DNA from: Longimicrobiales bacterium
GTDB taxonomy: Bacteria; Gemmatimonadota; Gemmatimonadetes; Longimicrobiales; Gaopeijiaceae
Assembly (NCBI GenBank): GCA_965249725.1
Contig: CBDFMQ010000002.1
Location: 2,784,001-2,848,000, forward strand
Direction: 5' to 3'
DNA length: 64,000 nt
In this document: positions 41,275-57,946 of the stretch, in pieces
Layout of the letters: every line of letters begins with the position of its first letter
How positions within the stretch are numbered: the stretch's first letter is position 1
Notes under the pieces: model-generated
Told to the model about the DNA's origin: nothing
Database searches by the model: none
Seen by the model: the letters and a program-made list of their open reading frames with translations, nothing else
Made by a program: the position numbers and the translations under genes

Positions 41275-41495
41275 GAGTTCGTCCCGTCCTTGAGGCTCAA
41301 TCCCAGCAGCCCTGCAACTTTTCCCTGGACGTCGAGGATCAGGCGCGCCTTCTCGAGTTCCTTCTCCAGGCGAGTGTTCTCGCGCTCCAGCTTGCGCACT
41401 TTCCCCTCCAGCGGATTCCGTTCGCTCGGCTTTCGACCTCGTCTCTTCGACAGCGCTCTCAGCGACCCACTCCGCACCGCCTTGCGCCATGTCGA
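41271..41495 (-). pseudogene. IS3 OrfA, N-terminal HTH missing
   Basis: STWRK..KRRGRKP..LERENTRLEKELEKARLILDVQGKV coiled coil. Confidence 0.8.
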
Positions 41496-42211
41496 TCCCG
41501 GCACCTATGCTCCCCCCTTCCGACGGACTTGCGTGGCGCGAGGAGATCCGCGGCTTCGAAGGCAGCGTGGCCTTGGACGTCCTCCTCGAAGACCTGTGGA
41601 CTCGCGGGATTCCCGTCGTTCCAATCCACATGCTGCCGGTGCCTAGCTTCCAGGGACTTGCCGCAGTGGTAGAGGGCAGGCCCGTGGTCGTGTCGGGCTA
41701 CAGGCATGACGAACCGGGACGGGTCGCGTTTCGCATCTCGCATGAGGCTGGTCACATCGCAAAGGGGGACTGCACGTCTGATGCTCCCGTGGTCGACAAG
41801 GATGAAGAGATTCTGTCGGATGACGCGATGGAGAAGCTCGCTGACCAGTATGCAATCCGAGTGCTCGTGGGCGAAGACACGATTCCTGAGCTAGGCCGCA
41901 GTGCTTTCGACAACTTCCGGGACTTGGCTAATCGGGCCGCTGCGGTGGAGCGGGAGACAGGTGCCGACGCCGGAGCGATCATCTTCTCATGGGCACGTAC
42001 CACGGGCGACTATGCGACTGCCACCATGGCGACCAAGGCGCTGTACCTCTCAACCGGAGCCACCCGAAGTCTAAGGGCCACGGAAAGTCTCATTGCGAGG
42101 GTTGCGCCTCGATCAAGGCAGCCGCGGACGGCCAGCCGCGCCTCGGGTCACCCGAGGTGTGGCGACGCATTGGAACCGTCCATCACATCACCGAAGTCAC
42201 GCAGACGTTGA
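41489..42211 (+). pseudogene. ImmA/IrrE-family metallopeptidase, N-terminally truncated
   Basis: RVAFRISHEAGHI (HExxH), EKLADQYA; abuts the broken IS; C-terminus likely shifted. Confidence 0.7.
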
Positions 42212-42784
42212 GGTCTCTACCCGAGTCCTAAGCCGATATCGGACCGCTGACCGGATCTCGGGCACGTCGAGAACCTCGCATACACGGTCCCACACCGCCG
42301 GTCTCGGCTTGCTTCGCACACCTGCCACTGCGTTGTGGTACGCAAGTAGTTCCAGGGCCTCGTCGCGCCAAAGCAGCTCGACCAACGCACGTGGATCTTG
42401 GTCAGGGTTCTCAGCGGCAGGGCGAAACGGATCGAGCGTGAGTGCCTCGACACTGCCGCGAACCAAGAGCACGCCCCACCACCCGGGGACGAGCTGGAGA
42501 GCAGCCTCGATATGCTTTGGACCAACAACAAGGGTGACGCGGTCCAACACACGACTATACGTCGCAGCCTGGGAGGCCAACCGAGTCAACCGGTCCCGAT
42601 TCGACTTGATCTCGTAGCCATGAAGAACACCGCTCACTGTCGCCAAGTCGATCCGAGCCTGGCCTTGGCAGAGCCCCAGTTCCTCGATCAATAGCGTGTC
42701 CGGGTGTGCCAACTCCTGTTGCTCCAGATACGTCCGAAGCGCCGGTCGCACCTCCGCATCTCGGATCACGTTGTGAGATGTCAA
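42197..42784 (-). CDS. sce7726-family protein (PD-(D/E)xK-like)
   Basis: IEELGL..RIDLA..LHGYEIKSNRDRLTRL..Q..YSRVLD..WWG. Confidence 0.75.
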   Translation of the reverse strand: MTSHNVIRDAEVRPALRTYLEQQELAHPDTLLIEELGLCQGQARIDLATVSGVLHGYEIKSNRDRLTRLASQAATYSRVLDRVTLVVGPKHIEAALQLVPGWWGVLLVRGSVEALTLDPFRPAAENPDQDPRALVELLWRDEALELLAYHNAVAGVRSKPRPAVWDRVCEVLDVPEIRSAVRYRLRTRVETSTSA

Positions 42785-43125
42785 TTCAGCACGGGAGAAA
42801 AGATGACCACCGGCCAGAAGGCAAGATAGCGCGTCGCAAGCTGAGTCTGCTACCGCTGGCCCAGGAGTTCGGCAACGTAAACACGGCGGATGTGGACGCC
42901 CCCCTGGTTGGCAAGTTTGACCTCAAATCGAGGTCGGTGGCGTTCAGGTCAGGTACTGTCGTATGTGCGACATCTTGATGCGACACTTCTGGCCGCGGGC
43001 CCGTATGGTGTTTGTGAGATCGGATCCAAATGGTGCCAGCGGAACTCGGCGGCCCTTCGCCTTGCACGGGTTTCCCGACCCGTCTTGTCGCCCGCGGGCC
43101 CTACCTTGTCCGACATCTGCACTAT

Positions 43126-43650
43126 TCAGTGGGAACCTCCGTGGCTGGTGCACGCCATCGCGCGGAAGCCATGCTGAATCATCCGTTCCGGGGGGTTGTC
43201 CAAGGCACGTAGTGCGGACGGCCGACCGCGCGACCGGACTCGGGCCCGAACGCCTCTCCGTCCTCGCATACGCCGGGACGCCGGTGCGTGGAACGGATTG
43301 CCGAAGAGCTGCGATCCCTGGACCGTCGCGCCCTCGACGCCTTGGACAAGGCCGCGCGCGTCCTCGAATCGCTCGAGACGAAGCTGCCCGTCGTACGCTG
43401 ATTCCGTCCTTGATGCCAAGGAGCCGGGCTTGCAAAATACGTAACCAAAATGGGTACTGATTCCCATGGGCATAGGCCGGCCGTAGAGGCGACGGATGTC
43501 TTCTGTGCATTGGCCGATGCGCCGCGCCGCATCATCCTCCACCAGCAGCCATAGATCGCCCCATCCGATATCTTGAGAGCCTCGATGTAGTCTGCCCGCC
43601 CGGCATCGGTCACCACCAGCGGAAACCACCCCGCGCGGAGCATCACCAGC
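43126..43650 (-). pseudogene. Degraded Fic-family C-terminal fragment
   Basis: LRAGWFPLVV..RADYIEAL..GDL resembles the segment after the Fic motif; multiple frameshifts. Confidence 0.45.
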
Positions 43651-43814
43651 GTCCGACACGGGACCAGACACGACCCGGATTCCCGCTATTTGATGCGGTT
43701 TTCCCGCTATTTCAGTACGGCGGAACCAGATATGGTCTAACGGCAAGAACGGCAGATCGTGCAGTCCTAGTTGAACTTAGGCGATTTCTTGCCGTGAATC
43801 ACATCATCCGTACT

Positions 43815-43835
43815 ACGCCTGATAAGCGTGAGGTC
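43815..43835 (+). other. tRNA-Ile(GAT) anticodon-arm fragment, likely att scar
   Basis: acgcctgataagcgtgaggtc matches the typical tRNA-Ile anticodon arm and variable loop; no acceptor, D or T arms. Confidence 0.65.
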
Positions 43836-43907
43836 CCCGTCTCGTCTTCCCGCGCGGTTTACGCAGGAGCGATCTGATTGGCTCGCCCGATGACCCGAAG
43901 TCATGTC

Positions 43908-44063
43908 ATATAACGTTCAGGGCCTCCGAACCGGCCCACGTTTCAGTGCCTTACATCAAGGACAGATCCACAGCCGCTTCCGCTGACCGAAGCCCATTTG
44001 ATCGAGGGCCGGTTGGGCCGAGGGCCGCCTACAGCGGCCCGAGCCGGAGGCCCCGTGTTACAC
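43908..44063 (-). repeat. att site A1 (154-bp family)
   Basis: TAACGTTCAGGGCCTCCGAACCGGCCC, 69-nt variable loop, conserved 47-nt arm, GTTACAC. Confidence 0.9.
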
Positions 44064-44179
44064 GGCGTTTCCCCACGCGCCTCTTCAATCCGCTCCTAAT
44101 CTGGTGAGACAATCGGGAATGCGACTGTATTTGGCACTGGCGTGAACTAGCGGATTGCAATTCGGCCGCTGCACCTTCC

Positions 44180-44977
44180 TTATCCCGGCACCAACGCCAG
44201 GCACGCCCCCACCGGATCCTGAACCACCGCACATTCGTACTCCCCATCGTGCCCCCGTGTGGCCTTGATGATCTTACCCCCTCCCTCCCCTACGCGACGG
44301 AGACTTTCGGCGAGGTCGCCAACGGGGAGGAAAATCATCCAGATAGGCGGCAAACCTAGGTTCACGCCGCGCGCATGGCAGACTCCCGCCGCCGGGTTTC
44401 CGTCATCGCCGAACAAGTGGTAGTCGGCATAGGGCCCGCTTGCGTCCTCCATCTCGACGTCCTGCGCGGACCAGTGAACGACCTGTCGGTAGAAGTCACG
44501 AGTTGCCGAGGCGTCAGAGACCGTCAGGTCGAGCCAGGAGATGCGTCCCACACGCGCCGCAGCGTCGCGCGATGCGGCGCCGTCAGTTGGGAGGATCGCC
44601 TCCGCAGAAACGACGGGGATGATCCCGAACGCCGCCCCATTCGGATCGAGCAGCACCGCCCACTGACTCTTTCCAGCGTCGCCTTTGGCATGCATGAGCT
44701 CACTCCCGCCCAGATCCAGCGCTCGCCCCACACTGGCTGCGACATCGGCGACCTGAATGTGCGGCATCCATTGGAGCGGGAGGTGAGCATATTCCGCGCT
44801 GCGCGCGCCCAAGCCGATGATCGGCATGCCCAGGTTGTTCATCAGATCCTCGCGCCAAAGCGGATTCTCGCCCGTGCTGAGTACACGTGAGTAGAAGCGC
44901 ACTTCACGTTCGTGTTCGGGAACGGCGATGTCGGCGCTGAGGATTCCGCCGACGCGTGGGACAAGGGGGTCACTCAT
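44180..44977 (-). CDS. VOC/glyoxalase family protein, two domains (cassette)
   Basis: WMPHIQVADV..DPNGAAFG; ISWLDLTVSD..RDFY..DPVGA. Confidence 0.85.
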   Translation of the reverse strand: MSDPLVPRVGGILSADIAVPEHEREVRFYSRVLSTGENPLWREDLMNNLGMPIIGLGARSAEYAHLPLQWMPHIQVADVAASVGRALDLGGSELMHAKGDAGKSQWAVLLDPNGAAFGIIPVVSAEAILPTDGAASRDAAARVGRISWLDLTVSDASATRDFYRQVVHWSAQDVEMEDASGPYADYHLFGDDGNPAAGVCHARGVNLGLPPIWMIFLPVGDLAESLRRVGEGGGKIIKATRGHDGEYECAVVQDPVGACLALVPG

Positions 44978-45316
44978 GGTTCGCGTCCTGGTTGACATCA
45001 TGTTGGGTCAAGGTTCATTGGCCAGATATGGACTTCAATGGGCATCGCGGCAACGATTCTCGAGGCAGGGGCCCGAGACCTTCTCGAAGAATGGTACCGG
45101 GTGAGGCCACAGTCCGTGCGGGTGATCCGGAGGCGGCCTAGCTAGGAATTGGCCTGTACCAATCCGGGTCTGATACTGTGCTCATCTCTGCGATAATCCC
45201 GCCCCATGGCGCAGACCGCACACCCGGACACGGTTCTGCGAACCTGCAAAGGGCCCCGTTGTTCCGCATTTCGGACGACCTACATGAGAAATGTCGATCT
45301 CATCTACGACAATGAC

Positions 45317-45470
45317 GTGTAACGTTCAGGGCCTCCGAACCGGCCCACATTCGTGGGTTACTTCTGCTCTCTTCCACGTACCACTTCCGTAACTCCACGT
45401 CCTCCCGGTCGTGGCCGGTTGGGTCGAGGGCCGCCTACAGCGGCCCGAGCCGGAGGCCCATTTGTTATCA
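45317..45470 (-). repeat. att site A2
   Basis: Same 27-nt and 47-nt arms; 66-nt loop; ends GTTATCA. Confidence 0.9.
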
Positions 45471-45484
45471 GGCGTTGCCGTGTT

Positions 45485-45817
45485 TCACGACAGCACTAGG
45501 TAGGCGGCCACTTCGTCGTCCTCGAACTCGTAAATCCGAGCCGAGTTGGACCGCAGGATCCTCTCTGTTTCTTGGACGCTACAATTGCCGCGGCGTATCC
45601 AGATGACCTTCGGAGGGGGGCCGAAGACGAAGCTCATTTGCTGGAAATCGTTGTCCTTCGACACGATTACCAAGTTCGCCTCCCTCGCATGGTCCCAGAT
45701 CTCTGAATCCGACGCTCTTGTCATCCCCAAATCCCGAACGTGTACAGAATCAGGGAAGATGTCGGCGAGGGCGTGAGCTAAGCGTGGGGCCAGGTTCTCA
45801 TCGAAAAGGAGCTTCAC
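45485..45817 (-). CDS. DUF5615 PIN-like toxin
   Basis: KLLFDENL, SDSEIW, IVSKDNDF, PPKVIWIR.GN. Confidence 0.88.
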   Translation of the reverse strand: MKLLFDENLAPRLAHALADIFPDSVHVRDLGMTRASDSEIWDHAREANLVIVSKDNDFQQMSFVFGPPPKVIWIRRGNCSVQETERILRSNSARIYEFEDDEVAAYLVLS

Positions 45818-45821
45818 CGCC

Positions 45822-46049
45822 TCACGCCGGAGGCAGCGCGATCAGGCGACGCTCCCGTTCTGCAGCGAACGCCAGGGCCGCCTTGATGTCCTCCCTCTCC
45901 AGATCCGGCAACTCCGCCAGGATCTCGTCCTCCGTCATTCCGGAGGCTAGGTAGTCGAGCACATCGGACACCGTGATCCGCATCCCGCGGATACACGGCT
46001 TCCCACTTCTCTTGCCTGACTCGATCGTGATTCGGTCTCGGTAGTCCAT
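45822..46049 (-). CDS. DUF433 antitoxin
   Basis: GKPCIRGMRITV..GMTEDEIL..DLEREDI.AAL.FAA. Confidence 0.9.
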   Translation of the reverse strand: MDYRDRITIESGKRSGKPCIRGMRITVSDVLDYLASGMTEDEILAELPDLEREDIKAALAFAAERERRLIALPPA

Positions 46050-46217
46050 GCCTCAAATACCCCCAACCTCTTCGGAAGGGTCAAGCTTGCATTGCCAACA
46101 CTGACTCGGCACACGATCGCCTGCAAGATCCTTCTGCTCGAATCGCTTCACCTGTGCGAGCCCAGAACTCGATCGGTCGCCCTCGCCCTGGCCGTTTTCT
46201 CTGCCGGAGCAATGTCC

Positions 46218-46372
46218 TGATAACGTTCTAGGGTGCCGACGTTGCCCGTCGCATGCGCCGCACGAACCCGCCGGCACCAGATGCACCAATACCGCTCACG
46301 CGCGAGCCACGTCAAAGGGCAATGTACAGCGTAGCGAACGAAGTGAGCGCAGCCGGCACCCGGTTGTTATCG
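46218..46372 (-). repeat. att site A3 (divergent sequence, same fold and length)
   Basis: TAACGTTC; GGGTGCCG/CGGCACCC; ACGTTGCCC/GGGCAATGT; side hairpin; GTTATCG. Confidence 0.82.
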
Positions 46373-46439
46373 GAAGTGACCGTGCTGGCCACCCTTGGTC
46401 GTGCTGAGCGTAGGCGCCGACCCTATCCCTTGCTAGCAC

Positions 46440-46455
46440 ATAGCAGTACTGCTAT
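46440..46455. promoter_or_regulatory. Palindromic operator upstream of a TA operon
   Basis: atagcagtactgctat, perfect 16-bp palindrome 8 bp before the toxin ATG. Confidence 0.65.
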
Positions 46456-46463
46456 TCTCCATC

Positions 46464-46836
46464 ATGTCCTCGCCGGCCCGGAAACCGCTCCACTTCGTGG
46501 CCTCAAGCATCAAGGATCTCCGCGGTCTGCCGGAGGAGATCAAGGATGTGTTCGGGGCCGCCTTGCCTTGACGCTCAATACGGGGACCACCCCGCAGGAG
46601 CGAAACCATTCGGCGAGGGAGTGCCACGGGAGGTCATGAAACTGGTAGAGGACTACGACGGCAATACGTACCGCGCCGCCTACACGGTCGCGCTGAAGAG
46701 CGCGGTCTACGTACTCCATGTCTTCACCAAGAAGTCGAAGCGGGGAATCGGCACGCCACGTCCGGACAAGGATGCGATTCGGTCAAGACTCCAGGCGGCG
46801 AGGGAACACCACGCGAGGTACTACGAGAAGAGTTAA
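46464..46836 (+). pseudogene. RelE/Gp49-like toxin, frameshifted at about 46566
   Basis: KPLHFVASSIKDLRGLP.. then GNTYRAAY..VYVLHVFTKKS; one extra C in ttgccttgac. Confidence 0.8.
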
Positions 46837-46861
46837 AGGCAGTTCTAGAGGAGAAGATGCA

Positions 46862-47200
46862 ATGAGCGACGATCTGAAGATTCACGACAGCACGGGCAAC
46901 GTCTTCGCCGACATCGGCGCCCGCGACGCCGAGGAGCTGCTCGCAAAGGCGGAACTCGCGCGTCTCATCCGACACGAGCTCACACGGCGCGGACTCACGC
47001 AGGCCGTGGCTGCAGACCTCCTCGGCATGAAGCAGCCTGATGTCTCGGACCTGGTACGCGGGAAGCTGTCCCGCTTCAGCCTATCGCGGCTTGAGAGACT
47101 GCTGAACGCTCTCGACCTTGAGATTCGAATCCAGGTCGGGCCGAAGCCTGCCGACAAGGCTCAGGCCGGCATCACTGTTGAGCTCGTCGAGTCATTCTGA
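46862..47200 (+). CDS. XRE/HTH_37 antitoxin
   Basis: STGNVFADIG, LTQ..AA.LLG..QPDVSDL.RGK..FS. Confidence 0.88.
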   Translation: MSDDLKIHDSTGNVFADIGARDAEELLAKAELARLIRHELTRRGLTQAVAADLLGMKQPDVSDLVRGKLSRFSLSRLERLLNALDLEIRIQVGPKPADKAQAGITVELVESF

Positions 47201-47239
47201 CCTGCGGCCTCGGCCCTCCACATAGTGCACGGTCATTTC

Positions 47240-47393
47240 CGATAACGTTCAGGGCCTCCGAACCGGCCCTCACTTCGGTTCTTGGTTCTGCTCCAACTCA
47301 GCTATCAATCCCGTCGACCAATCGCCCCGGTCGCGGGCCGGTTGGGTCGAGGGCCGCCTATAGCGGCCCGAGCCGGAGACCCCTCTGTTAGAC
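47240..47393 (-). repeat. att site A4
   Basis: Conserved arms; 66-nt loop; ends GTTAGAC. Confidence 0.9.
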
Positions 47394-47412
47394 GATGCCG
47401 TTCCACACTCGT

Positions 47413-47718
47413 CTACTTCGTCGTCGTTCCTGCTTCAGCGTGTAGCTTGATCCCAAGAGCCTTGACCACCTTCAGGATTGTGTCAAAGCCCGGGCTACGC
47501 TCGCCGGACAACGCCTTGTACAGGCTCTCTCGAGACAGTCCAGCGTCTCTGGCCACCTGAGTCATTCCCTTGGCCCGGGCGATGTCTCCAAGGGCCTTGG
47601 CCACAAATGCGGCGTCACCATCCGCCTCCTCGAGGCACGCCTCTAGGTACGCAGCCATTTCTTCTGGCGTCCTGAGATGTTCAGCAACGTCGTATCGGGT
47701 CGTCTGAGTCGTTCCCAT
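47413..47718 (-). CDS. Addiction-module antidote (HTH antitoxin)
   Basis: YDVAEHL..ALGDIARAKGMTQVA..GLSRESLYKALS. Confidence 0.9.
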   Translation of the reverse strand: MGTTQTTRYDVAEHLRTPEEMAAYLEACLEEADGDAAFVAKALGDIARAKGMTQVARDAGLSRESLYKALSGERSPGFDTILKVVKALGIKLHAEAGTTTK

Positions 47719-47724
47719 GCTCTT

Positions 47725-48021
47725 TTACTCCGATAGATCGCGAGCGAGGCGTAGCGCAGCCTTGATGTCCTTGGTCTGCGAACTCTTATCCCCTCCCGCA
47801 AGCAAGATGATCAGCTCCCGCCCATACCGTTTGAAATAGACTCGGTATCCGGGTCCGTAATCGATTCGTAGTTCCGAGACACCCTCACCAACGGGCCTGA
47901 CATCCCCTGGATTGCCGACAGCAAGCCGCTCAATCCGGACCTGAACGCGGGCTCTCGCCCGCATATCTCGGAGGTCGTCTAGCCACCGCGCGAAGAACTC
48001 AGTCTTACGGATCTCGATCAT
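47725..48021 (-). CDS. Addiction-module killer (RelE/ParE superfamily toxin)
   Basis: GNPGDV.PVGEGVSELRIDYGPGYRVY, LLAGGDKSSQ. Confidence 0.9.
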   Translation of the reverse strand: MIEIRKTEFFARWLDDLRDMRARARVQVRIERLAVGNPGDVRPVGEGVSELRIDYGPGYRVYFKRYGRELIILLAGGDKSSQTKDIKAALRLARDLSE

Positions 48022-48026
48022 GTCCA

Positions 48027-48055
48027 AGTGTAGCCACGTGGCTACAGTCGGTCAA
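48027..48055 (-). promoter_or_regulatory. Sigma70-type promoter overlapped by an 18-bp palindrome, probably leaderless
   Basis: TTGACC-17 bp-TACACT on the minus strand; tgtagccacgtggctaca at 48029-48046; ATG 5 nt after the -10. Confidence 0.7.
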
Positions 48056-48090
48056 TCCAATAGCTGCGGTCGCGGTCGGTGTCGATTGCC

Positions 48091-48372
48091 TCACCAGTAC
48101 CACCCGGCCTCACGCGGATGAACATACGACCTCGCCTCACACTGCCCACGTTTGATCGCAGCTTGCGAACGCCGACGCTCCCGCCGGTTCAAGCGATTCC
48201 TGTACCACCGCGGAGGCACACACAGCCACTCGCATCCCCGCGAGCTAGCCTTCCATCCCTTGATCCGGCCGCCCGGCAGGATCTTCCACCTTCTCTGAGC
48301 CATTTCGCCCTCCCTGTAGAGTGCTACAGGAAGGGCGCCCTTTCCTTCAGAATCATACGTGCCATCTGTCAA
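48091..48372 (-). CDS. Small basic Trp-rich hypothetical protein
   Basis: PPRWYRNRLNRRERRR..GWYW; GGAGG upstream; start uncertain. Confidence 0.45.
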   Translation of the reverse strand: MTDGTYDSEGKGALPVALYREGEMAQRRWKILPGGRIKGWKASSRGCEWLCVPPRWYRNRLNRRERRRSQAAIKRGQCEARSYVHPREAGWYW

Positions 48373-48495
48373 ACCTCCTTTACCAGCGTTCTTGCCCCGT
48401 CGACAACATCAAGCGCACGCCTGCCGCCTACGTGCCGCAATGCGCTCCTCCAGCCAGGTCGCGTAGCTCTCCGCAGATCTTGTTTCAAGGCCAGG

Positions 48496-48519
48496 TAGTT
48501 ATTACCGTTGTTATAACTA
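48496..48519. promoter_or_regulatory. AT-rich inverted repeat upstream of the AbrB-Doc operon
   Basis: tagttat-N10-ataacta. Confidence 0.5.
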
Positions 48520-48539
48520 TCACAAACGAGGACTCGCTC

Positions 48540-48767
48540 ATGCCCAAGCAAACCACGATCCGCGCTATCGGCAACTCGGCCGGTACGACCATCCCAAAGC
48601 CTATGCTCGAGCGTTATCACTTGGGCGAAGGCGACGCCGTCCATTTGGTTGAGACCGAGGAAGGCATCCTGATCACTCCCTTCGATCCAGACTTCGATGA
48701 GGCCATGGAGATCTACGCAGAGGGTGCCAAGCGCTATCGCAATGCCATGCGTGAACTCGCCAAGTGA
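48540..48767 (+). CDS. AbrB/MazE-type antitoxin
   Basis: IRAIGNSAGTTIPK..GD.V.L..GILITP; stop overlaps the Doc start. Confidence 0.85.
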   Translation: MPKQTTIRAIGNSAGTTIPKPMLERYHLGEGDAVHLVETEEGILITPFDPDFDEAMEIYAEGAKRYRNAMRELAK

Positions 48768-49153
48768 CCGAGCCACGTTGGCTTTCTCAAGTACAAGTCC
48801 TCTCCATCCATTCTGATCAGATCCAAGCCCACGGCGGATCCCTTGGGCTCCGGGACAGGGGACTCCTGGAGTCCGCCCTCGAACGCCCTCGCAATCGCTT
48901 CCATTACGATCCCGAGGCCGACCTCCCTTCTCTCGCGGCCGCGTACGGGTTTGGACTTTCAAGCAATCATCCCTTCGTGGACGGCAACAAGCGCATCGCC
49001 TTTCAAGCCATGTATCTCTTCCTCGGTTTGAACGGCTTCCGCATTGATGCCTCTGAAGAAGAGGTCGCCACTACTATCCTTTCTCTGGCGCGCGGTGACC
49101 TCGACGAACCCACCCTGGCTGACTGGCTCCGTCACAACATCTCTCCTCGCTGA
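48764..49153 (+). CDS. Death-on-curing (Doc/Fic) toxin
   Basis: GLRDRGLLESAL.RP, NHPFVDGNKR. Confidence 0.92.
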   Translation: MTEPRWLSQVQVLSIHSDQIQAHGGSLGLRDRGLLESALERPRNRFHYDPEADLPSLAAAYGFGLSSNHPFVDGNKRIAFQAMYLFLGLNGFRIDASEEEVATTILSLARGDLDEPTLADWLRHNISPR

Positions 49154-49179
49154 CTCAGCCCCTTCATTCGAGGCATTGC

Positions 49180-49333
49180 GGCTAACGTTCAGGGCCTCCG
49201 AACCGGCCCCACCTTCCGTTCTCTACTCTACGGCAGATCCGCTGCCGCCTTCGTTGACCGAAGACCTCCCGGTCGCGGCCGGTTGGGTCGAGGGCCGCTT
49301 ACAGCGGCCCGAGTCGGAGGCCCCGTGTTATGT
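49180..49333 (-). repeat. att site A5
   Basis: Conserved arms; 67-nt loop; ends GTTATGT. Confidence 0.9.
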
Positions 49334-49422
49334 GACGTCGTGACCACGCAAGACCGTTCCCTTCTCTGCCAACGGCGACACGAACGCGCGCGGTCCGCGC
49401 GAGCACCACACCCGCACCCCTC

Positions 49423-49881
49423 CTATCGTGAAACCTCAAGCCACTGGTCCATGAACTCCGCAAAGTCTCCTGGCATGTCTGGACGGGACGCCACCCATGC
49501 CTCCCGAGCATATGGGAGCCGCAGAGTCTCCGCGAGCAAGAGGTCCAAGGCGGTCGGAGGAAGGACGTCATTGTCTACCTGACGCCACACGAGTTCCGCT
49601 TGACGGAAGAGGGCCTCCAGCCTAAAGGCGACAAGCATTCGCTCCTCAGTGCTGAAGTCGTCACGGAGCGCTCCGCTACGTATCCGACTGTACAAGGCAA
49701 GCCACTCTCGGTCTCCCGCCATCGTCGTGACCAAGTCGGTCGTGAAGATCGCGACGTCGCGGTATGCCTCGGCCCGGGCTACTGCCGTGTTCTGTCGTAT
49801 CTCTAGCCCCACGAAGACTAGAGAAAAAGTCACACCGAGTATGCCGATCAATTCCTTCAGAGCCGTGCGTTTCGCCATCAT
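49423..49881 (-). CDS. Hypothetical protein with N-terminal TM helix (cassette)
   Basis: ELIGILGVTFSLVFVGLEIRQNT; sole long ORF of its cassette; GGAG RBS. Confidence 0.7.
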   Translation of the reverse strand: MMAKRTALKELIGILGVTFSLVFVGLEIRQNTAVARAEAYRDVAIFTTDLVTTMAGDREWLALYSRIRSGALRDDFSTEERMLVAFRLEALFRQAELVWRQVDNDVLPPTALDLLLAETLRLPYAREAWVASRPDMPGDFAEFMDQWLEVSR

Positions 49882-50029
49882 GGATCACTCCCGACAAGAT
49901 CGGCCAGAGTCGATGAGCCACGTTCCTTGCGTCGACCCCGTAAGTTGAACCGCGCCATCCATGCACGCCGACTCCATCTTCTTATCCCTTGCCCTTCCAT
50001 TCCACAACTATGCTTGCCTGAGCGATTGC

Positions 50030-50182
50030 ACATAACGTTCAGGGCCTCCGAACCGGCCCCACATTCGTTTCTTGCTTCTGCTCCAATCTTCTATCACACA
50101 GTTCGACCGAAGTCCAACCGGTTGCGGCCGGTTGGGTCGAGGGCCGCCTTCAGCGGCCCGAGCCGGAGGCCCAGTGTTATAT
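50030..50182 (-). repeat. att site A6
   Basis: Conserved arms; 66-nt loop; ends GTTATAT. Confidence 0.9.
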
Positions 50183-50241
50183 GATGTGACGCTGGTCAAC
50201 TAAGTACTGCTGTTGATACTTCGGCGGGACGGGTCCTAGAG

Positions 50242-52911
50242 TCAGTTGGGCACCCGCTCCTTCAACTCCTCGAAGAAGTTGTCGACGAGAATCAATTGGC
50301 TGTCGAGATCAAGCGATCTCATCAGCATCAGGCGTTGGTCGTCCGGGCTGATGTCATAACCCGCGCTGCCGTTTCCGATCTGGTAGTCGGTCGAAGAGAA
50401 TAGGACTCGCTGCTGTCCTACAGAAAATGATGGATCGACGTTGATTTCGGCGACCATCTGTGTCCCTCCGACCGACTCACCCTGGTAGAACAACTCTCTG
50501 CCGCTGTGTGCCCACACGGACTCATCGCCGTAGGTAGTGGAGACCTGCCACAGGCCCGCGTCGACGTCGGGGAATGGACGCACGTACACCTGAGCCCGAT
50601 CCTCGGGGTTCGCTCTCCAGGTATACGAGAGCCAGCGCCCGTCCGGGGAAAGCGAGATCTCGGTCGCCCGCACTCCATCCGTGACCAACGGAGTCGCTAG
50701 ACTGTCCAATTCTGGCCGTATCGCGAAGATGTCCGCGTTGGCAACCAGGCCGTCAGATTCGACGAATACGAGCCACGTGCCATCGGGCGTGTACGCGAAT
50801 TCCTGAATGGGCCGCTCCCTGTCCAGGACGAGTTCAGCCGAGCCACTCCCGTCTGCTCTCTTTCTCCACAGATCGCGTTGCCCGGCCCGATTCGACACGA
50901 ACGTGACGAACTCCGCATCCCTCGACCACCGAGGCCTGAGATTCTCAGTCCCCTCGAATGTGAGTCGGGACAGCGGGCCTGAGTCCAATTGCTTGACATA
51001 CAAGTCCGCAGTCCCGTCAGCGTCGATGATCGACGCGACGAGCCTCGTGCCGCCCGGGGAAATGGCAAGACTGACCATGAAGGCGTCGGTGGGAAACGCC
51101 CAACCGGGATCAACTTCTTGGACAGTCCCGTCTCGGTCGACCCAGACAGGGGTGTGGAGGCCTCCGCCCACACCCGCCCGGTACACAAGCCTGTCCGACT
51201 CTGACACGTCGAAGTACGGTAGTCCTTGGCTTTGCAGCACTCCCTCTACGACTGGTTCCACAGCACCCATGAGTTCCAGGTTCGTCACGTCGAAGAGTGC
51301 CGCCAAGAGAGTCCCCTCGGTCGGGTTCACGAAGAGCAGATGTCCGGTGGAGACGTAGCGCGGGGCCTGGCCCGGCGTGAGGTCTTTGGTTTCGCCGGTC
51401 TCCAGGTCCAAGGCTTGGATTCGCTGGCCAGAAGCAGACCCCCGCACCTGATACAGGAGGCTACTGCTACCCGGCAGCACCTGCGCGAAGCTGTGGGAAA
51501 CGTCTCCGGCTGCGGTATCCACTCGGGTAACGACCTCGGACGGCCCACCGGTCGCTGGTACGCGGCTCAGTCCTCGCGCCGAGTCTCTGTAGTAGACCCA
51601 ATCACCCTCCCGACTCCACGTTGGGCAGCAGCTGGCAGATTCGGTGAGGATGCGCACTGCCCCCCCATCAAGGGGGACGACCCTAACCGAACCGCCGGAA
51701 GTATGGAAAGCCACCTCCCTATCATCCGGAGAAATAGTCGGGGCGTATGCATTCCCTGCATTCCGGATCGGAGTGGCGCTCAACGCGTCCCACCGCCTCA
51801 TCATCAGTGCGAGTTGCCCCTCCTCATCCACGCCCTTGTACACCATGAATGATCCATCGGCCGAAAGGTCTAGGCTTCCAAACGTGGACGCAAAGGACTG
51901 GCCTACTCCCATCAGCACTGAGACGCGTGTGACCGACTCTGGAGGCTCGGGACGGAGAAGTGACCAGCCCTGACTGAGCGCGAGCACCGCCGCCAGAGAG
52001 GCGAAAGCCATTGTCGACCGCTTCCACGGACCTGCATCTGAAGCGCCGACTCCGACGACCGCCTCGCCATATCGGAAGTGTTCATCTCCCAGCGCCGTCG
52101 CGAACTCCTGAGACGACTTGAACCGATCCGCAGGGAGCTTCTCCAACGCCTTCCGCAGCGCAGCGTCAACATTCGCCGGGATCGAAGCCCGCTTCTCGGT
52201 GGCCGAGATTGGTCGGGAGGAAATGATCTGGCCCAAGACGGCCTGAGCGGTTTTCCCCACGTATGGCGGGTCGCCCGTCAGCATCTCATATAGGACGGAG
52301 CCCAAGGCGTAGGTGTCCGTCGAAGCACCCACGAACTGATCGCCCGTTGCCTGCTCGGGGCTCATATAGAACGGGGTCCCCAGACTCAGGCCGGTCTCCG
52401 TCAGACGCCCTCCACCAGCCGCTCCAACAGCCAGCGCGATCCCAAAGTCGGCGATTAGTGGTCGCCCTTCGTGGAGCAAGATGTTGGCTGGCTTGATGTC
52501 TCGGTGGATGATCTTGTGGCGGTGAGCGTAGTCGAGCGCCTCTGCTAGGTCCGTGGTAATCTTCACCGCTTCGTCCACGGGGAGTTGATGCTCACGGTCC
52601 AGCCTGTCCCGTAACGACTCTCCCTCGATGTAGGGCATCACGTAGTAGAGGAAGCTGTCGGCTTCGCCCGAGTCGTGGAGCGGCAGGATGTTCGGGTGGG
52701 TCAGGTTGGCCGTAGTTTCGATCTCGGCCAGGAATCGCTCAGCGCCTACCACCGCTGCCAACTCGGGCTTCAGGACCTTCAAGGCCACGTTGCGGTTGTG
52801 CTTCAGGTCCTTGGCGAGATAGACCGTAGCCATCCCACCCTCGCCGAGCTCACGCTCGATGACGTACCGATTCTCAAGGGCTCCGTTCAGGCGAGAGACT
52901 GAATCGGACAC
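50242..52911 (-). CDS. Membrane Ser/Thr kinase with TolB/PD40-like beta-propeller (first cassette)
   Basis: GEGGMA, VALK, HRDIKPAN, DFG; TM helix; SPDG repeats. Confidence 0.93.
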   Translation of the reverse strand: MSDSVSRLNGALENRYVIERELGEGGMATVYLAKDLKHNRNVALKVLKPELAAVVGAERFLAEIETTANLTHPNILPLHDSGEADSFLYYVMPYIEGESLRDRLDREHQLPVDEAVKITTDLAEALDYAHRHKIIHRDIKPANILLHEGRPLIADFGIALAVGAAGGGRLTETGLSLGTPFYMSPEQATGDQFVGASTDTYALGSVLYEMLTGDPPYVGKTAQAVLGQIISSRPISATEKRASIPANVDAALRKALEKLPADRFKSSQEFATALGDEHFRYGEAVVGVGASDAGPWKRSTMAFASLAAVLALSQGWSLLRPEPPESVTRVSVLMGVGQSFASTFGSLDLSADGSFMVYKGVDEEGQLALMMRRWDALSATPIRNAGNAYAPTISPDDREVAFHTSGGSVRVVPLDGGAVRILTESASCCPTWSREGDWVYYRDSARGLSRVPATGGPSEVVTRVDTAAGDVSHSFAQVLPGSSSLLYQVRGSASGQRIQALDLETGETKDLTPGQAPRYVSTGHLLFVNPTEGTLLAALFDVTNLELMGAVEPVVEGVLQSQGLPYFDVSESDRLVYRAGVGGGLHTPVWVDRDGTVQEVDPGWAFPTDAFMVSLAISPGGTRLVASIIDADGTADLYVKQLDSGPLSRLTFEGTENLRPRWSRDAEFVTFVSNRAGQRDLWRKRADGSGSAELVLDRERPIQEFAYTPDGTWLVFVESDGLVANADIFAIRPELDSLATPLVTDGVRATEISLSPDGRWLSYTWRANPEDRAQVYVRPFPDVDAGLWQVSTTYGDESVWAHSGRELFYQGESVGGTQMVAEINVDPSFSVGQQRVLFSSTDYQIGNGSAGYDISPDDQRLMLMRSLDLDSQLILVDNFFEELKERVPN

Positions 52912-53065
52912 AGGCGTACTCCGGCACTATCAGGCGGCGGGCAGCATCGCGTGGGGGGCGTGGATAACGTGAGGGGCAGGAGCGGGCGGGTCAACAAGAG
53001 GCTTGGCCCCGGGCCCTGACTGCCGTACGCCCTGGGCGATGCTGGTTCACAAGTGAACCGCCCGA

Positions 53066-53216
53066 AGTCATATCATATAACGTTTGTATCTCCGACGTAC
53101 TACAAGTCCCCGTTTGGGATTCGGACCCGAGACGCGCGGGTAATGATCCGGTAGCCGGAGATTACCGAACTAGTTCGCGTAAGGGCCTTATAGTTCGTGG
53201 TCAGATCTTGACGAAC
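53066..53216 (-). other. Candidate attI/primary recombination site region
   Basis: TAAC at 53078-53081 whose left flank complements the A6 right flank; no closing GTTA; palindromes at 53166-53177 and 53193-53216. Confidence 0.65.
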
Positions 53217-53426
53217 AACTACACCGGGCCGGCCTGCGCGATGAGATCGCTGGGGGGCAGTGGGCCGATCCGGGCTCTCCGGCGGACATCCCTACTCCGC
53301 AGGATCGTGCCAATATGCTGATCGTGGCTCCAGGACGCCAACCAGCCCCTCGTGGCGTCGTCTAACGCTTCGGTCCAGGACCGATTCCGCCATGGCTCCG
53401 CCCGTCGTGTCTTGCGACCGTGGACC

Positions 53427-53951
53427 ATGGACTCCGACTCACCCCGAAACACGCCGTCCAGCCCGCAGCCGACCCAGCTACCGTCTGGGAGTGACATCGA
53501 GGTGACTGTCCGGGCGGGCGCAATCGTGCTACGCGGGCCCTACCGGGAGGATGTTGTCTCGCTGATCCGCTCCCTCCCCGGACGGCGCTGGGACCGCCGC
53601 GAACGCGTTTGGCGCCTACCGGATACATCACTGGTCAGAGCCGCTCTATGGGATAAACTGGGTATCCGTCTCGACCCGGAGCCCCGCGCCGACCGAAAGA
53701 CCCACTTGCGGTCCGACGAGCGGGAGGGCTTATCACTCCGCTTCGATGAAGAGATGCGGCTCCGCGGCTACGCTCCGCGCACTCGACGCGCGTATGGAGG
53801 CCACATCCGCCGCCTTCTCTCCGATGTCGGTGACGCGGAGGACCTGCCGGAAGCACTGCGCGAGCACGTACTCCGCCGGGTCGCCACCGACAAGGTATCT
53901 CGCTCCTACCACAACCAACTGATCAGCGCGCTTCGCTCTCACGAGGTCTGA
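53427..53951 (+). pseudogene. Tyrosine recombinase N-terminal fragment (extra N-terminal domain plus SAM_4-like domain); catalytic domain lost
   Basis: EEMRLRGYAPRTRRAY..HIRR and VSRSYHNQLISALR; breaks off at about 53937. Confidence 0.8.
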
Positions 53952-54026
53952 AGCGGCGCATCCAATCACCACTCGCCCCGATATTGCTATTCCTAGTCGA
54001 GGTTACTTGCAATTTCTAGTGTTATT

Positions 54027-54315
54027 TTGTTTGCAACCGCAGGCGCAGAAGTGCTCCAGTACCGGGACAACGTTGGCCTCGAAATCGACGCCATCGTACA
54101 AACACGAGACGGTCGATGGGCCGCCTTTGAGATCAAACTGGGCCAAGCAAGAGTGGATGAGGCCGCCAAAGACGCTCCTCAGGTTCCGAGACAAGAGGGT
54201 CGACACGAGCAAGACAGGTGAGCCCGCCATGCTCGCCGTCATCGTCAGCAACGGCCTCAGCTATATGCGTGAGGATGGAGTCGCCGTAGTCTCGCTCGGC
54301 GCCCTCGGGCCTTAG
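54027..54315 (+). pseudogene. C-terminal fragment of an AAA+/DUF4143 ATP-binding protein, frameshifted
   Basis: YRD..GLEIDAIV..GRWAAFEIKLG then LAVIV..REDGVAVVSLGALGP. Confidence 0.7.
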
Positions 54316-54499
54316 CCCCATCATGGATCCCCTAGCCGGCACGAACTGGAGCGCCCCGTCCACGGTGAGCGGCTTCGCCCAGGCTGACCCCGAACTGTCG
54401 GTAGGCCACCGGCCGAAGCACCGCAGTCGTTGACGTCCCCCTTATACCCTCCGATGTTCGACTCATGACGGACCGACACACGTTTCTGAGCCGGCAGAC

Positions 54500-55117
54500 A
54501 TGACGGTCCATCGGCTTGCGCACGCTGCTGGCGCGGTGGGCATGAGCTTGGTCTTCCTTCTGCTAGTCGGCTTGGCCATACCCCCCGCTGAGAAGTTTCC
54601 CGACTCCCTCGTTTCCGCATTCCACACGTTCTTCGTGGGTACCCTTATCCACCAAGAGGGACTTCCGGCCGAGAGCGATCCGGGGTGGATGGCAAAGGCC
54701 GAGCCCGGAGACGTGCTCTTTTTCTCCCGGGGGCATGTGGCCTGGGGTGAATGGTCGCACGTGGCGATGGTCGTACGAGCGCCCGACGACGCTGTCTGGG
54801 TGAAGCCAGGCACGCTGGCCGTCTTCGACGCCTCCATCTACGACGGGATGTACCTCTCTCCGCTCGAAGCCTACGGCGACTATCCCAGGGTCGTGGTACG
54901 GCGGGCCTCCGATGATCCCGAGGTCCGGCGACGCATGGCCGAGGCCGCCCTCACTCACCGGACGAGGATCTTCGTCGGCGTCGCCCGAAACGGGGCCCCC
55001 TACACCAACTGCACGACGTCGGTCATCTCAGCGTTGCAGTCTGTGGGGATCCAACCCCACCTCCCAGGGTGGAGGACCCCAGACGAGCTTCTCCGAAGCG
55101 AGATATGGCTCGACTGA
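54500..55117 (+). CDS. Permuted papain-like NlpC/P60 (YiiX/YebB-like) protein
   Basis: PGDVLF, WSHVAM (His before Cys), NCTT, TPDEL; N-terminal TM. Confidence 0.7.
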   Translation: MTVHRLAHAAGAVGMSLVFLLLVGLAIPPAEKFPDSLVSAFHTFFVGTLIHQEGLPAESDPGWMAKAEPGDVLFFSRGHVAWGEWSHVAMVVRAPDDAVWVKPGTLAVFDASIYDGMYLSPLEAYGDYPRVVVRRASDDPEVRRRMAEAALTHRTRIFVGVARNGAPYTNCTTSVISALQSVGIQPHLPGWRTPDELLRSEIWLD

Positions 55118-55617
55118 TCTGGCGGGGGTGGGCTGCTCTCTGCCTCCTGTCCGGTGCCGTCGTAGTACCCCTGTTCCTCGAGGTGTTTTCCGGTGGCTCG
55201 TGGCTGCACTTCACCGCGCTGGTCCTGCGATACGCGTGGCTCTGGCTGCTCGGGCTCCCCATCCTCCGCGAGGGGTGGCTCCCGGCTCGATGGGCCGCCG
55301 TCACCCTCCTCGGGTTTTGCGCACTGGTCTCAGGCATGGTCATGACGGACCTGCTGGGGTACGGGTCCGTGCACCCCGGCTGGTTCCTCGGCCTCGAATG
55401 GTGGCAGCGTCCGATTTATCCTTGGATCGACTTGCTTCCGCGCTGGCATTTCCGGTCCCGGCCTGGATACCTCTGGATCGTCTGCGTGTGGAACGTCGTG
55501 GAGGCAGCGGCGGTGAGCCTGGTCGTCTGGAAGATCCGCGGGCGCGGACGGGAGATCGGGGAGCCGCCCGCTCCCCAGGCGGCTCCCACGTCCATACCGA
55601 CCCCCCGCCTCAGCTGA
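55105..55617 (+). CDS. Hypothetical membrane protein
   Basis: Four hydrophobic segments; start overlaps the upstream stop region. Confidence 0.55.
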   Translation: MARLIWRGWAALCLLSGAVVVPLFLEVFSGGSWLHFTALVLRYAWLWLLGLPILREGWLPARWAAVTLLGFCALVSGMVMTDLLGYGSVHPGWFLGLEWWQRPIYPWIDLLPRWHFRSRPGYLWIVCVWNVVEAAAVSLVVWKIRGRGREIGEPPAPQAAPTSIPTPRLS

Positions 55618-57946
55618 TCAAACGGCTCGGCTTCGCCTTCACCACGAACAGCCCCTCGCTCATGCTCGTGATGATGATCATGCCGCTCTTGAAGTACGGG
55701 TAATTGCTCCATGAACCACCGCCACCGTACGGCGTGGTATCGATGAAGCCGACTTCGGACGGGTTCACCGGATCGGAGATGTCGAGGATACGGAGCCCGC
55801 TGCCGTAGTTCGACTGGTACATCGTGTCGCCTTTGATGTACAAGTTGTGATCCGTGGTCGTGGTCTCGGCGATGTGCTCGTTCACGAGAATCGGGTCATC
55901 CAGATCCGTGACATCCCATACCAAAGTCCGCGTGCCCGCAACCAGGCCCTGCGGCTCGTCGCCCTCGTCGTTGAGGTAGAAGTAACGCTGGTCCTCGGTC
56001 AGCCAACCCTGGTGCGTGTAAGCCACGTTGGGGTAGCTCGCCGTGGAGATTCCGATCGGATTCGCCTTGTCGGTGACGTCGGCTATGCTCAGGGCCGTCT
56101 CGTTGGCGCCCATGCAGATCTCTTTGCCCTGATACTCTTCGTCCGGCCCGTTGTAGACGACGCACTGCGCGTCGTGGGAGTAGCCGGTCCCGCTACGACC
56201 CGTGGATGGGTCGGCAAAGCACCCTGCGAACGTCGGACGGCTCGGATTCTCCAGGTTGATCATGTGAAGTCCGCCGCCACACGTCTCTCCACCGCTGCTG
56301 CTTCCGACCGAATAGGCGAAGCCGGACTCCTCGTTGATCACGATGTTGTGCGCGCTGGCGATGCCGTCGTAGATGAAATCCGCCTCGAACATGGCTGGAA
56401 CGGCCCCCGGGTTTCGCAGCCGGGTCAGATCGAACACCTGCACGCCGTGCTGGTTGGCGGCATCCGCGACGATGTACGCGTGATCCTTATAGGTCTTCAT
56501 GTCACGCCAGATGCTGCTTTGCGATCCGGGGGTCATGGGCAAATCGCCGACGAAGACCGGCCGAGACGGGTCGCTCAAATCCACGAACGACGTCCCGTCG
56601 GTACGCCCGATGATGGCGTACTCTTTGTCGGTTTGCGGATCGGTCCAACCCCATATGTCGTTTACCCTGGTGCCGCGCGCGCCACCGAGGTCCTTGATCG
56701 GCACGAACGACACGATGTCTACGTCGCTGCACTCGAATCCTGCCACTGATTCGTCCTCGCACTCCACTTCCTCGCCGGCTATCGCATCGAGGCCCTTCCA
56801 TTCATTGATGACGGTATTGCGTTCCGACCACGTGTTGCCGGTGCGCTCGAAGATGACGGCGGCGCCTTCCCTGGAATCCACGCCCGTTGCTCCGATCGCG
56901 GCCACCTCACCCGCGATCACGACCGCTCCACCAAAGCCGGCACCGTCGGGCAGCGTGTTGCTGGTCAGTTTCGTTGCTCCGGCCCAGCTACGTGAGCCGT
57001 CCCGCTCGAAGAGGTAGAAGGCGCCGGCACCACCAGTACCAGGAGCACCGACCCAGGTCGTCTCACCGTCGAACGTGATCGACGAGCCGAACTGGGCATT
57101 CGGCTGGGCATCAAACGGGCCCAGAGTGCCCTGCCTCTCCCAAGCGGCGGCTTGTGCGTCATACTCGAAAACGAACACGGCACCGACCCGCTGCCCCGTC
57201 GACGGCGCACCCACCAAAGCCATACCAGAGTCGAGGCCCAGGGACGTCCCGAGTCCGCTCGAGCCATCCATCTGGAGCTTGCCGGTCTCCACCAATCCAC
57301 TCGTGCCGTATTGGAACGCATACGCCGCTCCAGGAGCTCCACGTCCGCCCGGAGCCCCCACCAGTGCTATGCTCCCGTCGAAAGCCAGCGTGGCACCGAA
57401 GTTGTCGCCCGGCGCGGCGTCGCTGCCCGAGGACCTTCCGACTTGGCCCCACGAACCGCTCGCTGAGCGGCTGAACGCGTAGACAGCACCGGCACCGTCA
57501 TTCGCGCCGGTCGCCGAGATCAAGGCGACGTCCCCTTCGATGGCCACGACGGTCCCGAACCCGTCCCCTTCGATGCCATCGTTGGCGGAGAATCGTCCGA
57601 CCTCAGACCACGCGCCGGATCCGTCCCTGCCAAAAACGAAGACCGCGCCCGGCCCATCGAATCTCGCCGGGCTCCCGATCAACAGGGTCCCGCCGTCGCT
57701 GGCCAACCCCCGACCGAAACCGTCCGGCGCACCCCCGGCGTCAGAGGCGGTCAGCTGAGCCACCTCCTGCCATGCGCTGCCGGAGCGGCTGTACACGTAG
57801 ACAATCCCAGGAAACAGGCCGTTCCCGGTCTCACCGATGAGGATGTTCTCACCGCTTACGGTGAGCGCCCCACCGAAACCCTGGGCGGTCAACATCAAAG
57901 GAGCGATCAGCAGCGGGGCAAGTGCGGCTAGAAGACAACGTTTCAT
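55610..57946 (-). CDS. Choice-of-anchor B family protein with FG-GAP repeats
   Basis: FG..LVGAP..GAVY repeats; NDIWGWTDP, WRDMK, YSHDAQC, YTHQGWL, WSNYPYF. Confidence 0.88.
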   Translation of the reverse strand: MKRCLLAALAPLLIAPLMLTAQGFGGALTVSGENILIGETGNGLFPGIVYVYSRSGSAWQEVAQLTASDAGGAPDGFGRGLASDGGTLLIGSPARFDGPGAVFVFGRDGSGAWSEVGRFSANDGIEGDGFGTVVAIEGDVALISATGANDGAGAVYAFSRSASGSWGQVGRSSGSDAAPGDNFGATLAFDGSIALVGAPGGRGAPGAAYAFQYGTSGLVETGKLQMDGSSGLGTSLGLDSGMALVGAPSTGQRVGAVFVFEYDAQAAAWERQGTLGPFDAQPNAQFGSSITFDGETTWVGAPGTGGAGAFYLFERDGSRSWAGATKLTSNTLPDGAGFGGAVVIAGEVAAIGATGVDSREGAAVIFERTGNTWSERNTVINEWKGLDAIAGEEVECEDESVAGFECSDVDIVSFVPIKDLGGARGTRVNDIWGWTDPQTDKEYAIIGRTDGTSFVDLSDPSRPVFVGDLPMTPGSQSSIWRDMKTYKDHAYIVADAANQHGVQVFDLTRLRNPGAVPAMFEADFIYDGIASAHNIVINEESGFAYSVGSSSGGETCGGGLHMINLENPSRPTFAGCFADPSTGRSGTGYSHDAQCVVYNGPDEEYQGKEICMGANETALSIADVTDKANPIGISTASYPNVAYTHQGWLTEDQRYFYLNDEGDEPQGLVAGTRTLVWDVTDLDDPILVNEHIAETTTTDHNLYIKGDTMYQSNYGSGLRILDISDPVNPSEVGFIDTTPYGGGGSWSNYPYFKSGMIIITSMSEGLFVVKAKPSRLIS

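Follow-up and report, generated by a model that had tools for sequence, protein, structure and literature searches.

The window analysed here, a 64,000-nucleotide stretch of a Longimicrobiales bacterium (assembly GCA_965249725.1, contig CBDFMQ010000002.1, positions 2,784,001 to 2,848,000), shows between positions 43894 and 53951 six gene units separated by six attC-like sites and bordered by a truncated tyrosine recombinase gene. This region is probably a sedentary cassette array of a second, apparently undescribed, type of integron: it is integron-like in its working, yet it lies outside the integron as delimited by the integrase IntI and by attC. The preliminary description of this sequence had suggested a parallel cassette platform, a reading supported here, since the enzyme family lacks the IntI insertion and the sites differ from attC. 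As judged from the sequences, recombination would be carried out by the family of this enzyme. Hereafter, family denotes the homologues of the window recombinase fragment together with their site type, and canonical denotes IntI together with attC. The array contains the following features:

53427..53951, plus strand: truncated tyrosine recombinase, divergent from the array, with a putative HARP-like domain and most of the core-binding domain; the catalytic domain is absent
53078..53260, minus strand: head (attI-like) region, with the crossover inferred between G and TT at 53081/53080
about 53086-53094 and 53156-53166, in the head region: hairpin arms
about 53167-53178, in the head region: perfect 12-bp palindrome, one base of which differs in locus L157
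50176..53081, minus strand: unit 1, 2906 bp, Ser/Thr kinase with PD40 beta-propeller, gene 50242-52911 (Pfam/NCBIfam)
50030..50182, minus strand: site 1, attC-like, with flush inner stem and side hairpin
49327..50036, minus strand: unit 2, 710 bp, 152-aa protein, gene 49423-49881
49180..49333, minus strand: site 2
47387..49186, genes on both strands: unit 3, 1800 bp, fused cassette with two toxin-antitoxin pairs on opposite strands
47413-48021, minus strand: HI1419/HI1420-type toxin-antitoxin pair of unit 3
48540-49153, plus strand: AbrB-type antitoxin and Doc pair of unit 3
47240..47393, minus strand: site 3
46366..47246, plus strand: unit 4, 881 bp, Gp49-like toxin (46464-46836) and helix-turn-helix antitoxin (46862-47200) (Pfam)
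46218..46372, minus strand: site 4, divergent in sequence, with a compensated inner stem
45464..46224, minus strand: unit 5, 761 bp, pair of DUF433 (45820-46049) and DUF5615/PIN (45485-45817) proteins (Pfam)
45317..45470, minus strand: site 5
44057..45323, minus strand: unit 6, 1267 bp, two-domain glyoxalase/VOC protein, gene about 44180-44980 (Pfam)
43908..44063, minus strand: site 6
43894..43914, minus strand: start of the stretch past the last site, 20 of its 21 bases equal to the start of unit 1

On the minus strand, every unit opens with GTT and closes with the complement of its own start. The TAAC..GTTA spans measure 147-150 nucleotides and start at 43911, 45320, 46221, 47243, 49183 and 50033; with the 7-nucleotide boxes the sites are of 153-156 nucleotides, five of them similar in sequence and site 4 divergent. 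The six sites and the unit-specific cores previously listed are all found where the preliminary description placed them, and its unit-by-unit pairing of ends is borne out far beyond chance by permutation of the pairings: at core positions 5-8 the cognate ends match in 23 of 24 cases, the top value among 720 pairings (mean 12.8), and at positions 9-16 in 24 of 48, a value reached by 14 of the 720. The two cores of one site, as placed in the array, match at only 1-3 of four positions. The AAC/GTT core with complementary cassette ends, characteristic of attC, is present. The only core mismatch in the window belongs to unit 3 (47387/49186), because this unit is a fusion of two cassettes found apart elsewhere; the coordinates previously given for this imperfect pair are right, and the fusion accounts for its imperfection.

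Beyond the core the pairing continues, interrupted at position 11 by a fixed mismatch, a feature absent from the preliminary description. In the window this mismatch is in register in five of the six units and shows a one-base slip in the sixth; the ends of unit 1 pair at 14 of the first 15 bases, and those of unit 4 form a 20-nucleotide repeat (95%). Family cassette ends pair as far as position 9-10; position 11 hardly ever pairs (0.05), and pairing resumes at 12-14, where 0.85-0.89 of the cognate pairs match, against 0.27-0.34 of the non-cognate pairs with the same core; the pairing of canonical ends fades past position 9. Position 11 shows A opposite C on the top strand, and G-T on the bottom strand, in 53 of 65 family pairs versus 3 of 117 canonical pairs. 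Between neighbouring sites of family arrays, positions 5-7 all match in 65 of 87 pairs, and in one cassette of genome G249 the GTT triplet itself is altered at both ends. The 11 bases past the crossover at the window cassette starts presumably resemble the XerD arm of dif.

One site finder was run on family and canonical classes alike, and a few of its entries are false calls. A one-base bulge is the best fit in 162 of 164 canonical sites, and 82 of 112 family sites are flush, including all five window sites picked up by the finder; the extrahelical base that attC carries within the inner stem is not a feature of family sites. The stem is unbroken to position 11 or beyond in 98 of the 112 family sites versus 6 of the 164 canonical ones. 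The unpaired central spacer and the paired inner (L) stem of attC are present, and the inner stem covaries, with 9 cells changed on both sides versus 3.7 in shuffles (0 of 500 as high), a figure that kinship among the sequences can inflate. Site 1 folds better than shuffled sequences (z -4.1), and site 4 alone does not (z +0.56). A search of 40000-58000 against Rfam gives zero matches.

Two covariance models were built, R1 from 12 family sites and R2 from 46 canonical attC of the same phylum. R1 matches none of 20 IntI loci at E<=0.1 and recognises family loci as far as Desulfitobacterium; site 4 reaches 100 bits with this model, whose training set included it. The home-built R2 detects none of the six window sites at E<=1 and finds two canonical attC elsewhere in the window, and on two other family arrays it gives only E values of 0.15-0.9. 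These two models do not cross-detect, and the scan with a site-based model that had been proposed for this array yields matches that follow the family enzyme, not the IntI loci.

The gene beside the head, previously called a divergent recombinase fragment, is indeed one, with its reading frame starting at 53427. It corresponds to residues 1-171 of a 385-aa relative (76% identity) and then breaks off, and it is 75-76% identical to the homologues P0002-P0004 (385-423 aa). Truncation by assembly error was rejected: contigs of four of four sequencing runs, one possibly from the source sample, bridge the same break. The missing C-terminal half was not found elsewhere in the genome, and the sole other family copy of the genome (C3:2292762-2293479) is frameshifted. 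Since both enzyme copies are broken, the window array is probably frozen, and it is probably retained by its four toxin-antitoxin pairs.

The local gene ends upstream of the segment where IntI carries its insertion, so the catalytic domain was compared on homologues, in an alignment of 94 family rows and 25 IntI from which loci with frames under 250 aa were left out. The catalytic R, K, H, R and Y are found in 94 of the 94 family proteins and the second H in 93. The K-to-H spacing is 64-67 in 93 family proteins and 72 in one, 106-107 in 25 of 25 IntI, and 71-72 in the two XerC/D-like proteins of this genome. The 41-residue IntI insertion near patch III (I2 helix) is absent in 94 of 94 family proteins and lacking in none of the 25 IntI, and the family shows an alignment gap against residues 178-239 of 2a3v. 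All eight homologues tested score 191-226 bits with TIGR02249, split in two pieces, versus a cut-off of 265, and 171-198 bits with TIGR02224 and TIGR02225 versus cut-offs of 330-335, below the level of XerC and XerD orthologues. In a quick tree, whose IntI rows are all from this phylum, family and IntI group against the XerC/D-like pair (support 98), and IntI forms a clade (support 100) with the family outside; the tree does not separate sister grouping from paraphyly, and long branches meet in it. The preliminary description would have taken homologues with the IntI insertion and a place within IntI as signs of a normal integron; the insertion is absent and the family lies outside the IntI clade. 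VchIntIA (2a3v) is the best PDB match by sequence and by fold, and archaeal XerA the second-best structural match. The N-terminal domain, about 60 residues with a confidently predicted fold, may be HARP-like, as four tests agree, each one weak. Its Pfam HARP match has an E of about 1e-3, below cut-off; in the window fragment HARP reaches 9e-4 and Phage_int_SAM_4 3e-4, both below cut-off. A family-derived profile, circular for the family, finds the domain in 84 of the 94 family rows and 0 of the 25 IntI, and the Atlas neighbours of the domain are SWI/SNF, HARP (21% of members) and XPB DRD at 0.88-0.90.

An enzyme of this kind could instead move double-stranded modules, pdif- or transposon-like, through terminal inverted repeats, the hairpins serving transcription or RNA stability. 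The Xer-like spacing, the lack of the IntI insertion, the match to archaeal XerA, cassette ends that are repeats of 13-20 bp and a folding energy without strand bias all agree with such modules, but recognition by protein would favour one consensus, and the ends covary cassette by cassette at positions 12-14, as do the inner stems. The insertion of a naturally transformed polymerase chain reaction (PCR) fragment in Riemerella, reported in the available section of PMC13148043, moreover fits a single-stranded donor, and this explanation is considered unlikely.

The array end at 53078, previously taken for a half site, is instead a head site. It carries hairpin arms of its own and shares a motif with other heads: a CGGAGAT-like motif precedes GTT in the heads of loci L064, L011, L106 and L083. 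Locus L157, in genome G301 of the same genus, shows a homologous head (92% over 53136-53255) with another first cassette and no adjoining recombinase. Behind conserved heads the homology ends exactly between G and TT, as at an attI-type site. A consensus scan, which also covered a cassette promoter, scored no sigma-70 promoter or terminator at the head. The head palindrome (53167-53178) is one that we take to resemble a LexA-type operator. At the other end of the array, 43894..43914 and the start of unit 1 belong to a 24-nucleotide direct repeat (96%) with two copies only, genome-wide; this stretch either formed the right half of the head site originally or is the remnant of a lost seventh cassette.

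Comparison of loci indicates that cassettes are mobile and reordered. Unit 5 recurs at 80-88% identity in L254, L194, L247 and L168, with GTTA and TAAC at both ends of the copies in L254 and L194. The halves of unit 3 recur separately in other loci; L246 (92%), L175 and L217 each carry the Doc half as an independent cassette whose ends match. An invariant gene order across relatives, which would have spoken against a cassette system, is not what these loci show, as the cassettes recur beside other neighbours. It is hardly credible that the sites are REP-like (repetitive extragenic palindrome) or MITE-like (miniature inverted-repeat transposable element) repeats or terminators between genes gathered by homologous recombination: solitary and partial copies elsewhere in the genome would agree with passive repeats, but these leave unexplained the pairing of ends across each gene, the same cassette borders beside differing site sequences and the exact stop of homology at GTT past conserved heads.

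Sites of this type accompany the family gene. Among 92 family loci, 34 have at least 2.5 kb downstream and 72 at least 2.5 kb upstream; with a finder tuned to family-type sites, 23 of the 34 show at least one site downstream and 16 at least two. On the recombinase strand lie 106 sites and on the other one, and upstream only three are found in 660 kb. A held-out set of 74 Bacteroidota loci, with five repeats of earlier records removed, shows a site in 31 of 38 loci with at least 2 kb downstream, a strand distribution of 95 versus 1, flush stems in 94 of 99 sites and an unpaired position 11 in 51 of 52 cassettes. Heads are found in 53 of these loci, mostly about 105 nucleotides past the gene, and 53 of 53 first cassettes differ. 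Carriers of the family include Flavobacterium, Desulfitobacterium, Paenibacillus, Nitrospirota and an Altarchaeum, and arrays headed by the family enzyme occur in Gemmatimonadota, Bacteroidota and Bacillota. A phylum sample of 301 genomes contains the family in 11 (E<=1e-60) and IntI over cut-off in 125, a tally that takes in two unpublished genomes. Genomes G249, G288 and G270 have arrays directly behind the family gene and no IntI over cut-off, and G301, with an array, yields neither gene at the thresholds applied. In locus L103 of G270, numerous short cassettes, each of about 340 bp and almost identical, follow one another in tandem. Array and gene are usually co-oriented, and the divergent layout of the window recurs in the close relatives G279, G239 (by eye) and G302, the last with only a C-terminal recombinase piece remaining. 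Repeats near G179 and G116 were rejected as sites, being coding repeats. In the Chryseobacterium plasmid L234 the site calls are confounded by a symmetric 142-nucleotide element, and L235 gives none; a search of plasmids with the window site gave no match.

Riemerella anatipestifer carries sites of the same design. The available section of PMC13148043 reports that in this species aph(3')-IVb was inserted without homology, together with 27 bp of upstream and 140 bp of downstream sequence, from a PCR fragment taken up by natural transformation; it names strain RCAD0416 as plasmid carrier and describes an attC-like fold of the 140 bp. That plasmid, NZ_CP073240.1 (L334), has ten flush sites, behind aadS, tet(X), lnu(I), a toxin-antitoxin pair, estT and an APH(3') gene of 262 codons, whose family-type crossovers lie 28 bases before the start and 139 past the stop, and the ends of this cassette pair with A/G at position 11. 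The total is 167 bases in both experiment and plasmid (27+140 versus 28+139), a comparison of lengths in which the allele match is not sequence-confirmed. The inserted fragment is thus alike to a family-type cassette in length and has an attC-like fold; unlike the arrays described here, no recombinase, array or site rules are named in that section. In the complete R. anatipestifer chromosome NZ_CP081184.1 (L336), 17 family-type sites are packed into 20 kb, and 12 of 15 pairs show A/G at position 11; the chromosome also has a single intact family gene and lacks an IntI over cut-off.

The recombination may proceed as follows. A cassette circle or single strand would fold, its two ends forming an outer stem of about 15 bp that is mismatched at position 11; next would come an unpaired spacer of unequal sides (about 1-4 versus 5-7 nucleotides) and then a flush inner stem of 9-11 bp. 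Such a fold would mimic a double-stranded site for two monomers, and so could be bound by an enzyme without the base-flipping insertion. With either the head site or a further cassette site as partner, one strand would be exchanged between G and TT, and the junction would be resolved by replication, by analogy with integrons and with the CTX phage and XerCD. More speculatively, the HARP-like domain may bind the branch where the inner stem ends, and the G-T pair at position 11 may mark the bottom strand.

Several observations weigh against a separate integron type. No site is found downstream in 11 of the 34 family loci, and the finder used for these loci was tuned to family-type sites. Plasmid NZ_CP073240.1 contains no tyrosine recombinase, and the Riemerella family gene, about 455 kb away from the array examined, is followed by no site over roughly the next 17 kb. 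The folding energy of the whole site has no strand preference (bottom strand lower in 55 of 112), and 12 of 52 held-out Bacteroidota cassettes are mismatched at position 11 on both strands; for these two reasons the G-T wobble is unproven as a means of strand choice. Contigs of the four runs show the same cassette order wherever sites are bridged and no clear circle or excision junction, and the array looks fixed in present-day populations. For the HARP-like domain, the top Foldseek match, SMARCAL1 HARP (4o66), is weak (E 0.13), as is the HARP match of VIA-align (Z 4.0, root-mean-square deviation 1.9, 46 aligned, rank 14), whose list is topped by unrelated folds with Z <5 and neither proves nor excludes HARP. 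Finally, the enzyme of the window is broken, the genome has a canonical IntI in open frame at C3:1028959-1030107 (335 bits versus 265), and two canonical attC of the window, 36521-36621 (36.8 bits) and 39039-39138 (54.9 bits), both on the minus strand like the array sites, lie 5-7 kb from the array.

These last observations would suit an ordinary orphan array, or cluster of attC sites lacking an integron-integrase (CALIN), with odd attC on which canonical IntI acts in trans and with the recombinase fragment as a bystander. The accessible part of PMC5027507 also reports that IntI1 tolerates the loss of extrahelical bases in some attC and can recombine them when stripped of these bases, and in the available text of Cury 2016 (PMC4889954) only 50 of 18,808 insertion-less recombinases lie near an attC, these being judged not to be integrases and dismissed, and four intermediate enzymes, each with under three attC, are set aside. 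Against action in trans, the site type tracks the enzyme type (R1 matches many family loci and no IntI locus), genomes without IntI still carry arrays behind the family gene, Bacteroidota heads keep a fixed spacing from that gene, and the 17 chromosomal sites of Riemerella occur with no IntI over cut-off. An orphan array served by IntI is accordingly very unlikely, and the array of the window is better described as belonging to a second type of integron.

The cargo of the window array comprises the kinase-propeller, one protein without family match in Pfam or NCBIfam (the 152-aa product of unit 2), four toxin-antitoxin pairs and the glyoxalase. The genes of unit 3 match TIGR02683, TIGR02684, TIGR02609 and TIGR01550, and the frame of the Gp49-like toxin of unit 4 is broken by a frameshift near its start. 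The kinase of unit 1 has at least 18 further near-full-length paralogues of 41-59% identity among the best 25 of 31 matches. The two canonical attC of the window enclose a 2.4-kb cassette that also contains a kinase gene (36703-38928), and both cassette systems of the genome captured the same expanded host kinase family. The canonical integron itself (C3:1022190-1030107) has four attC of about 100 nucleotides with an extrahelical G, and with the canonical model the whole genome yields 18 sites at E<=0.1. A third array (C3:2280566-2293479) shows ten sites behind the frameshifted insertion-less recombinase, with the position-11 mismatch in three of three pairs. Further family-type sites are found at C2:265318-266457, C3:651737-662191 and C3:1934680-1938031; the first two regions also show head-like sites and no recombinase nearby, and the C2 head precedes a phosphotransferase-like gene, so labelled by reading the sequence. 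Between the two kinds of array in the window, at 40267-41500 and 41489-42784, there are an rve-type insertion sequence (84% to copies in G301), a peptidase-like fragment and a 195-aa gene, which has no Pfam match and presumably resembles the sce7726 family. At 46387-46390, contigs of runs X1, X4 and X5 end with about 28 unmatched letters and that of X8 continues, probably a polymorphic insertion with a 4-bp duplication. Two joints in contigs, 50185-to-53076 (side 23) and 44064-to-45316 (side 30), were left unused, being short, of 90% likeness and probably from related strains. Directly past the recombinase break, 54000-54315 contains an ATPase-associated gene fragment, and one-base differences from all four runs at 54030 and 54168 suggest sequencing slips in the window.

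Sedentary chromosomal integrons share with the family arrays a recombinase with a head site and an array, the AAC/GTT core, paired cassette ends, the asymmetric unpaired spacer and toxin-antitoxin cargo; unlike them, the family lacks the 41-residue insertion, has the putative HARP-like domain, and has sites without extrahelical base, with a longer outer stem and a fixed mismatch. The CTX phage stem, as described in the consulted part of PMC4792948, has no extrahelical bases, mimics a duplex and is recombined by XerCD, which has no insertion. The CTX phage and IMEX (integrative mobile elements exploiting Xer) are thus alike in using a folded single strand without extrahelical bases and an insertion-less enzyme, whereas the family enzyme is dedicated, single, adjoins its array and builds arrays of many cassettes. 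Also close are the "integron-like" tyrosine recombinase subgroup of Smyshlyaev 2021 (PMC8138268), to which the present family may belong, and NCBIfam NF040815; the available text of that study states that the IntI insertion is not fully conserved and assigns no arrays or sites to the insertion-less members. In the open-access literature no description of this system was found, subscription papers lying outside this coverage. Integrons are reported as very rare in Bacteroidetes and Firmicutes in the part seen of PMC9024848, and the per-genome table of Cury 2016 (PMC4889954) lists no element in the first 29 of 45 Flavobacteriales rows.

A wider reading is tentative: the family may be a widespread, active integron class that stands for a stage before I2, with folded single-stranded sites free of extrahelical bases, which fills the supposed integron gap in Bacteroidota and Bacillota, reaches Archaea and provides the unexplained route of resistance capture in Flavobacteriia such as Riemerella, IntI having arisen within or beside it. 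The available part of PMC4792948 states the origin of the I2 domain and the extrahelical bases as a chicken-and-egg problem, which this family makes directly testable. Integrons are defined and sought through the IntI insertion and attC models, and a parallel class invisible to those models would, if true, extend the range over which cassette capture is known. An entire class of gene-capture systems has probably gone unnoticed, since identically designed sites also border resistance genes in Riemerella, a duck pathogen, and the family is a candidate explanation for this unexplained route of resistance-gene capture, with relevance to surveillance.

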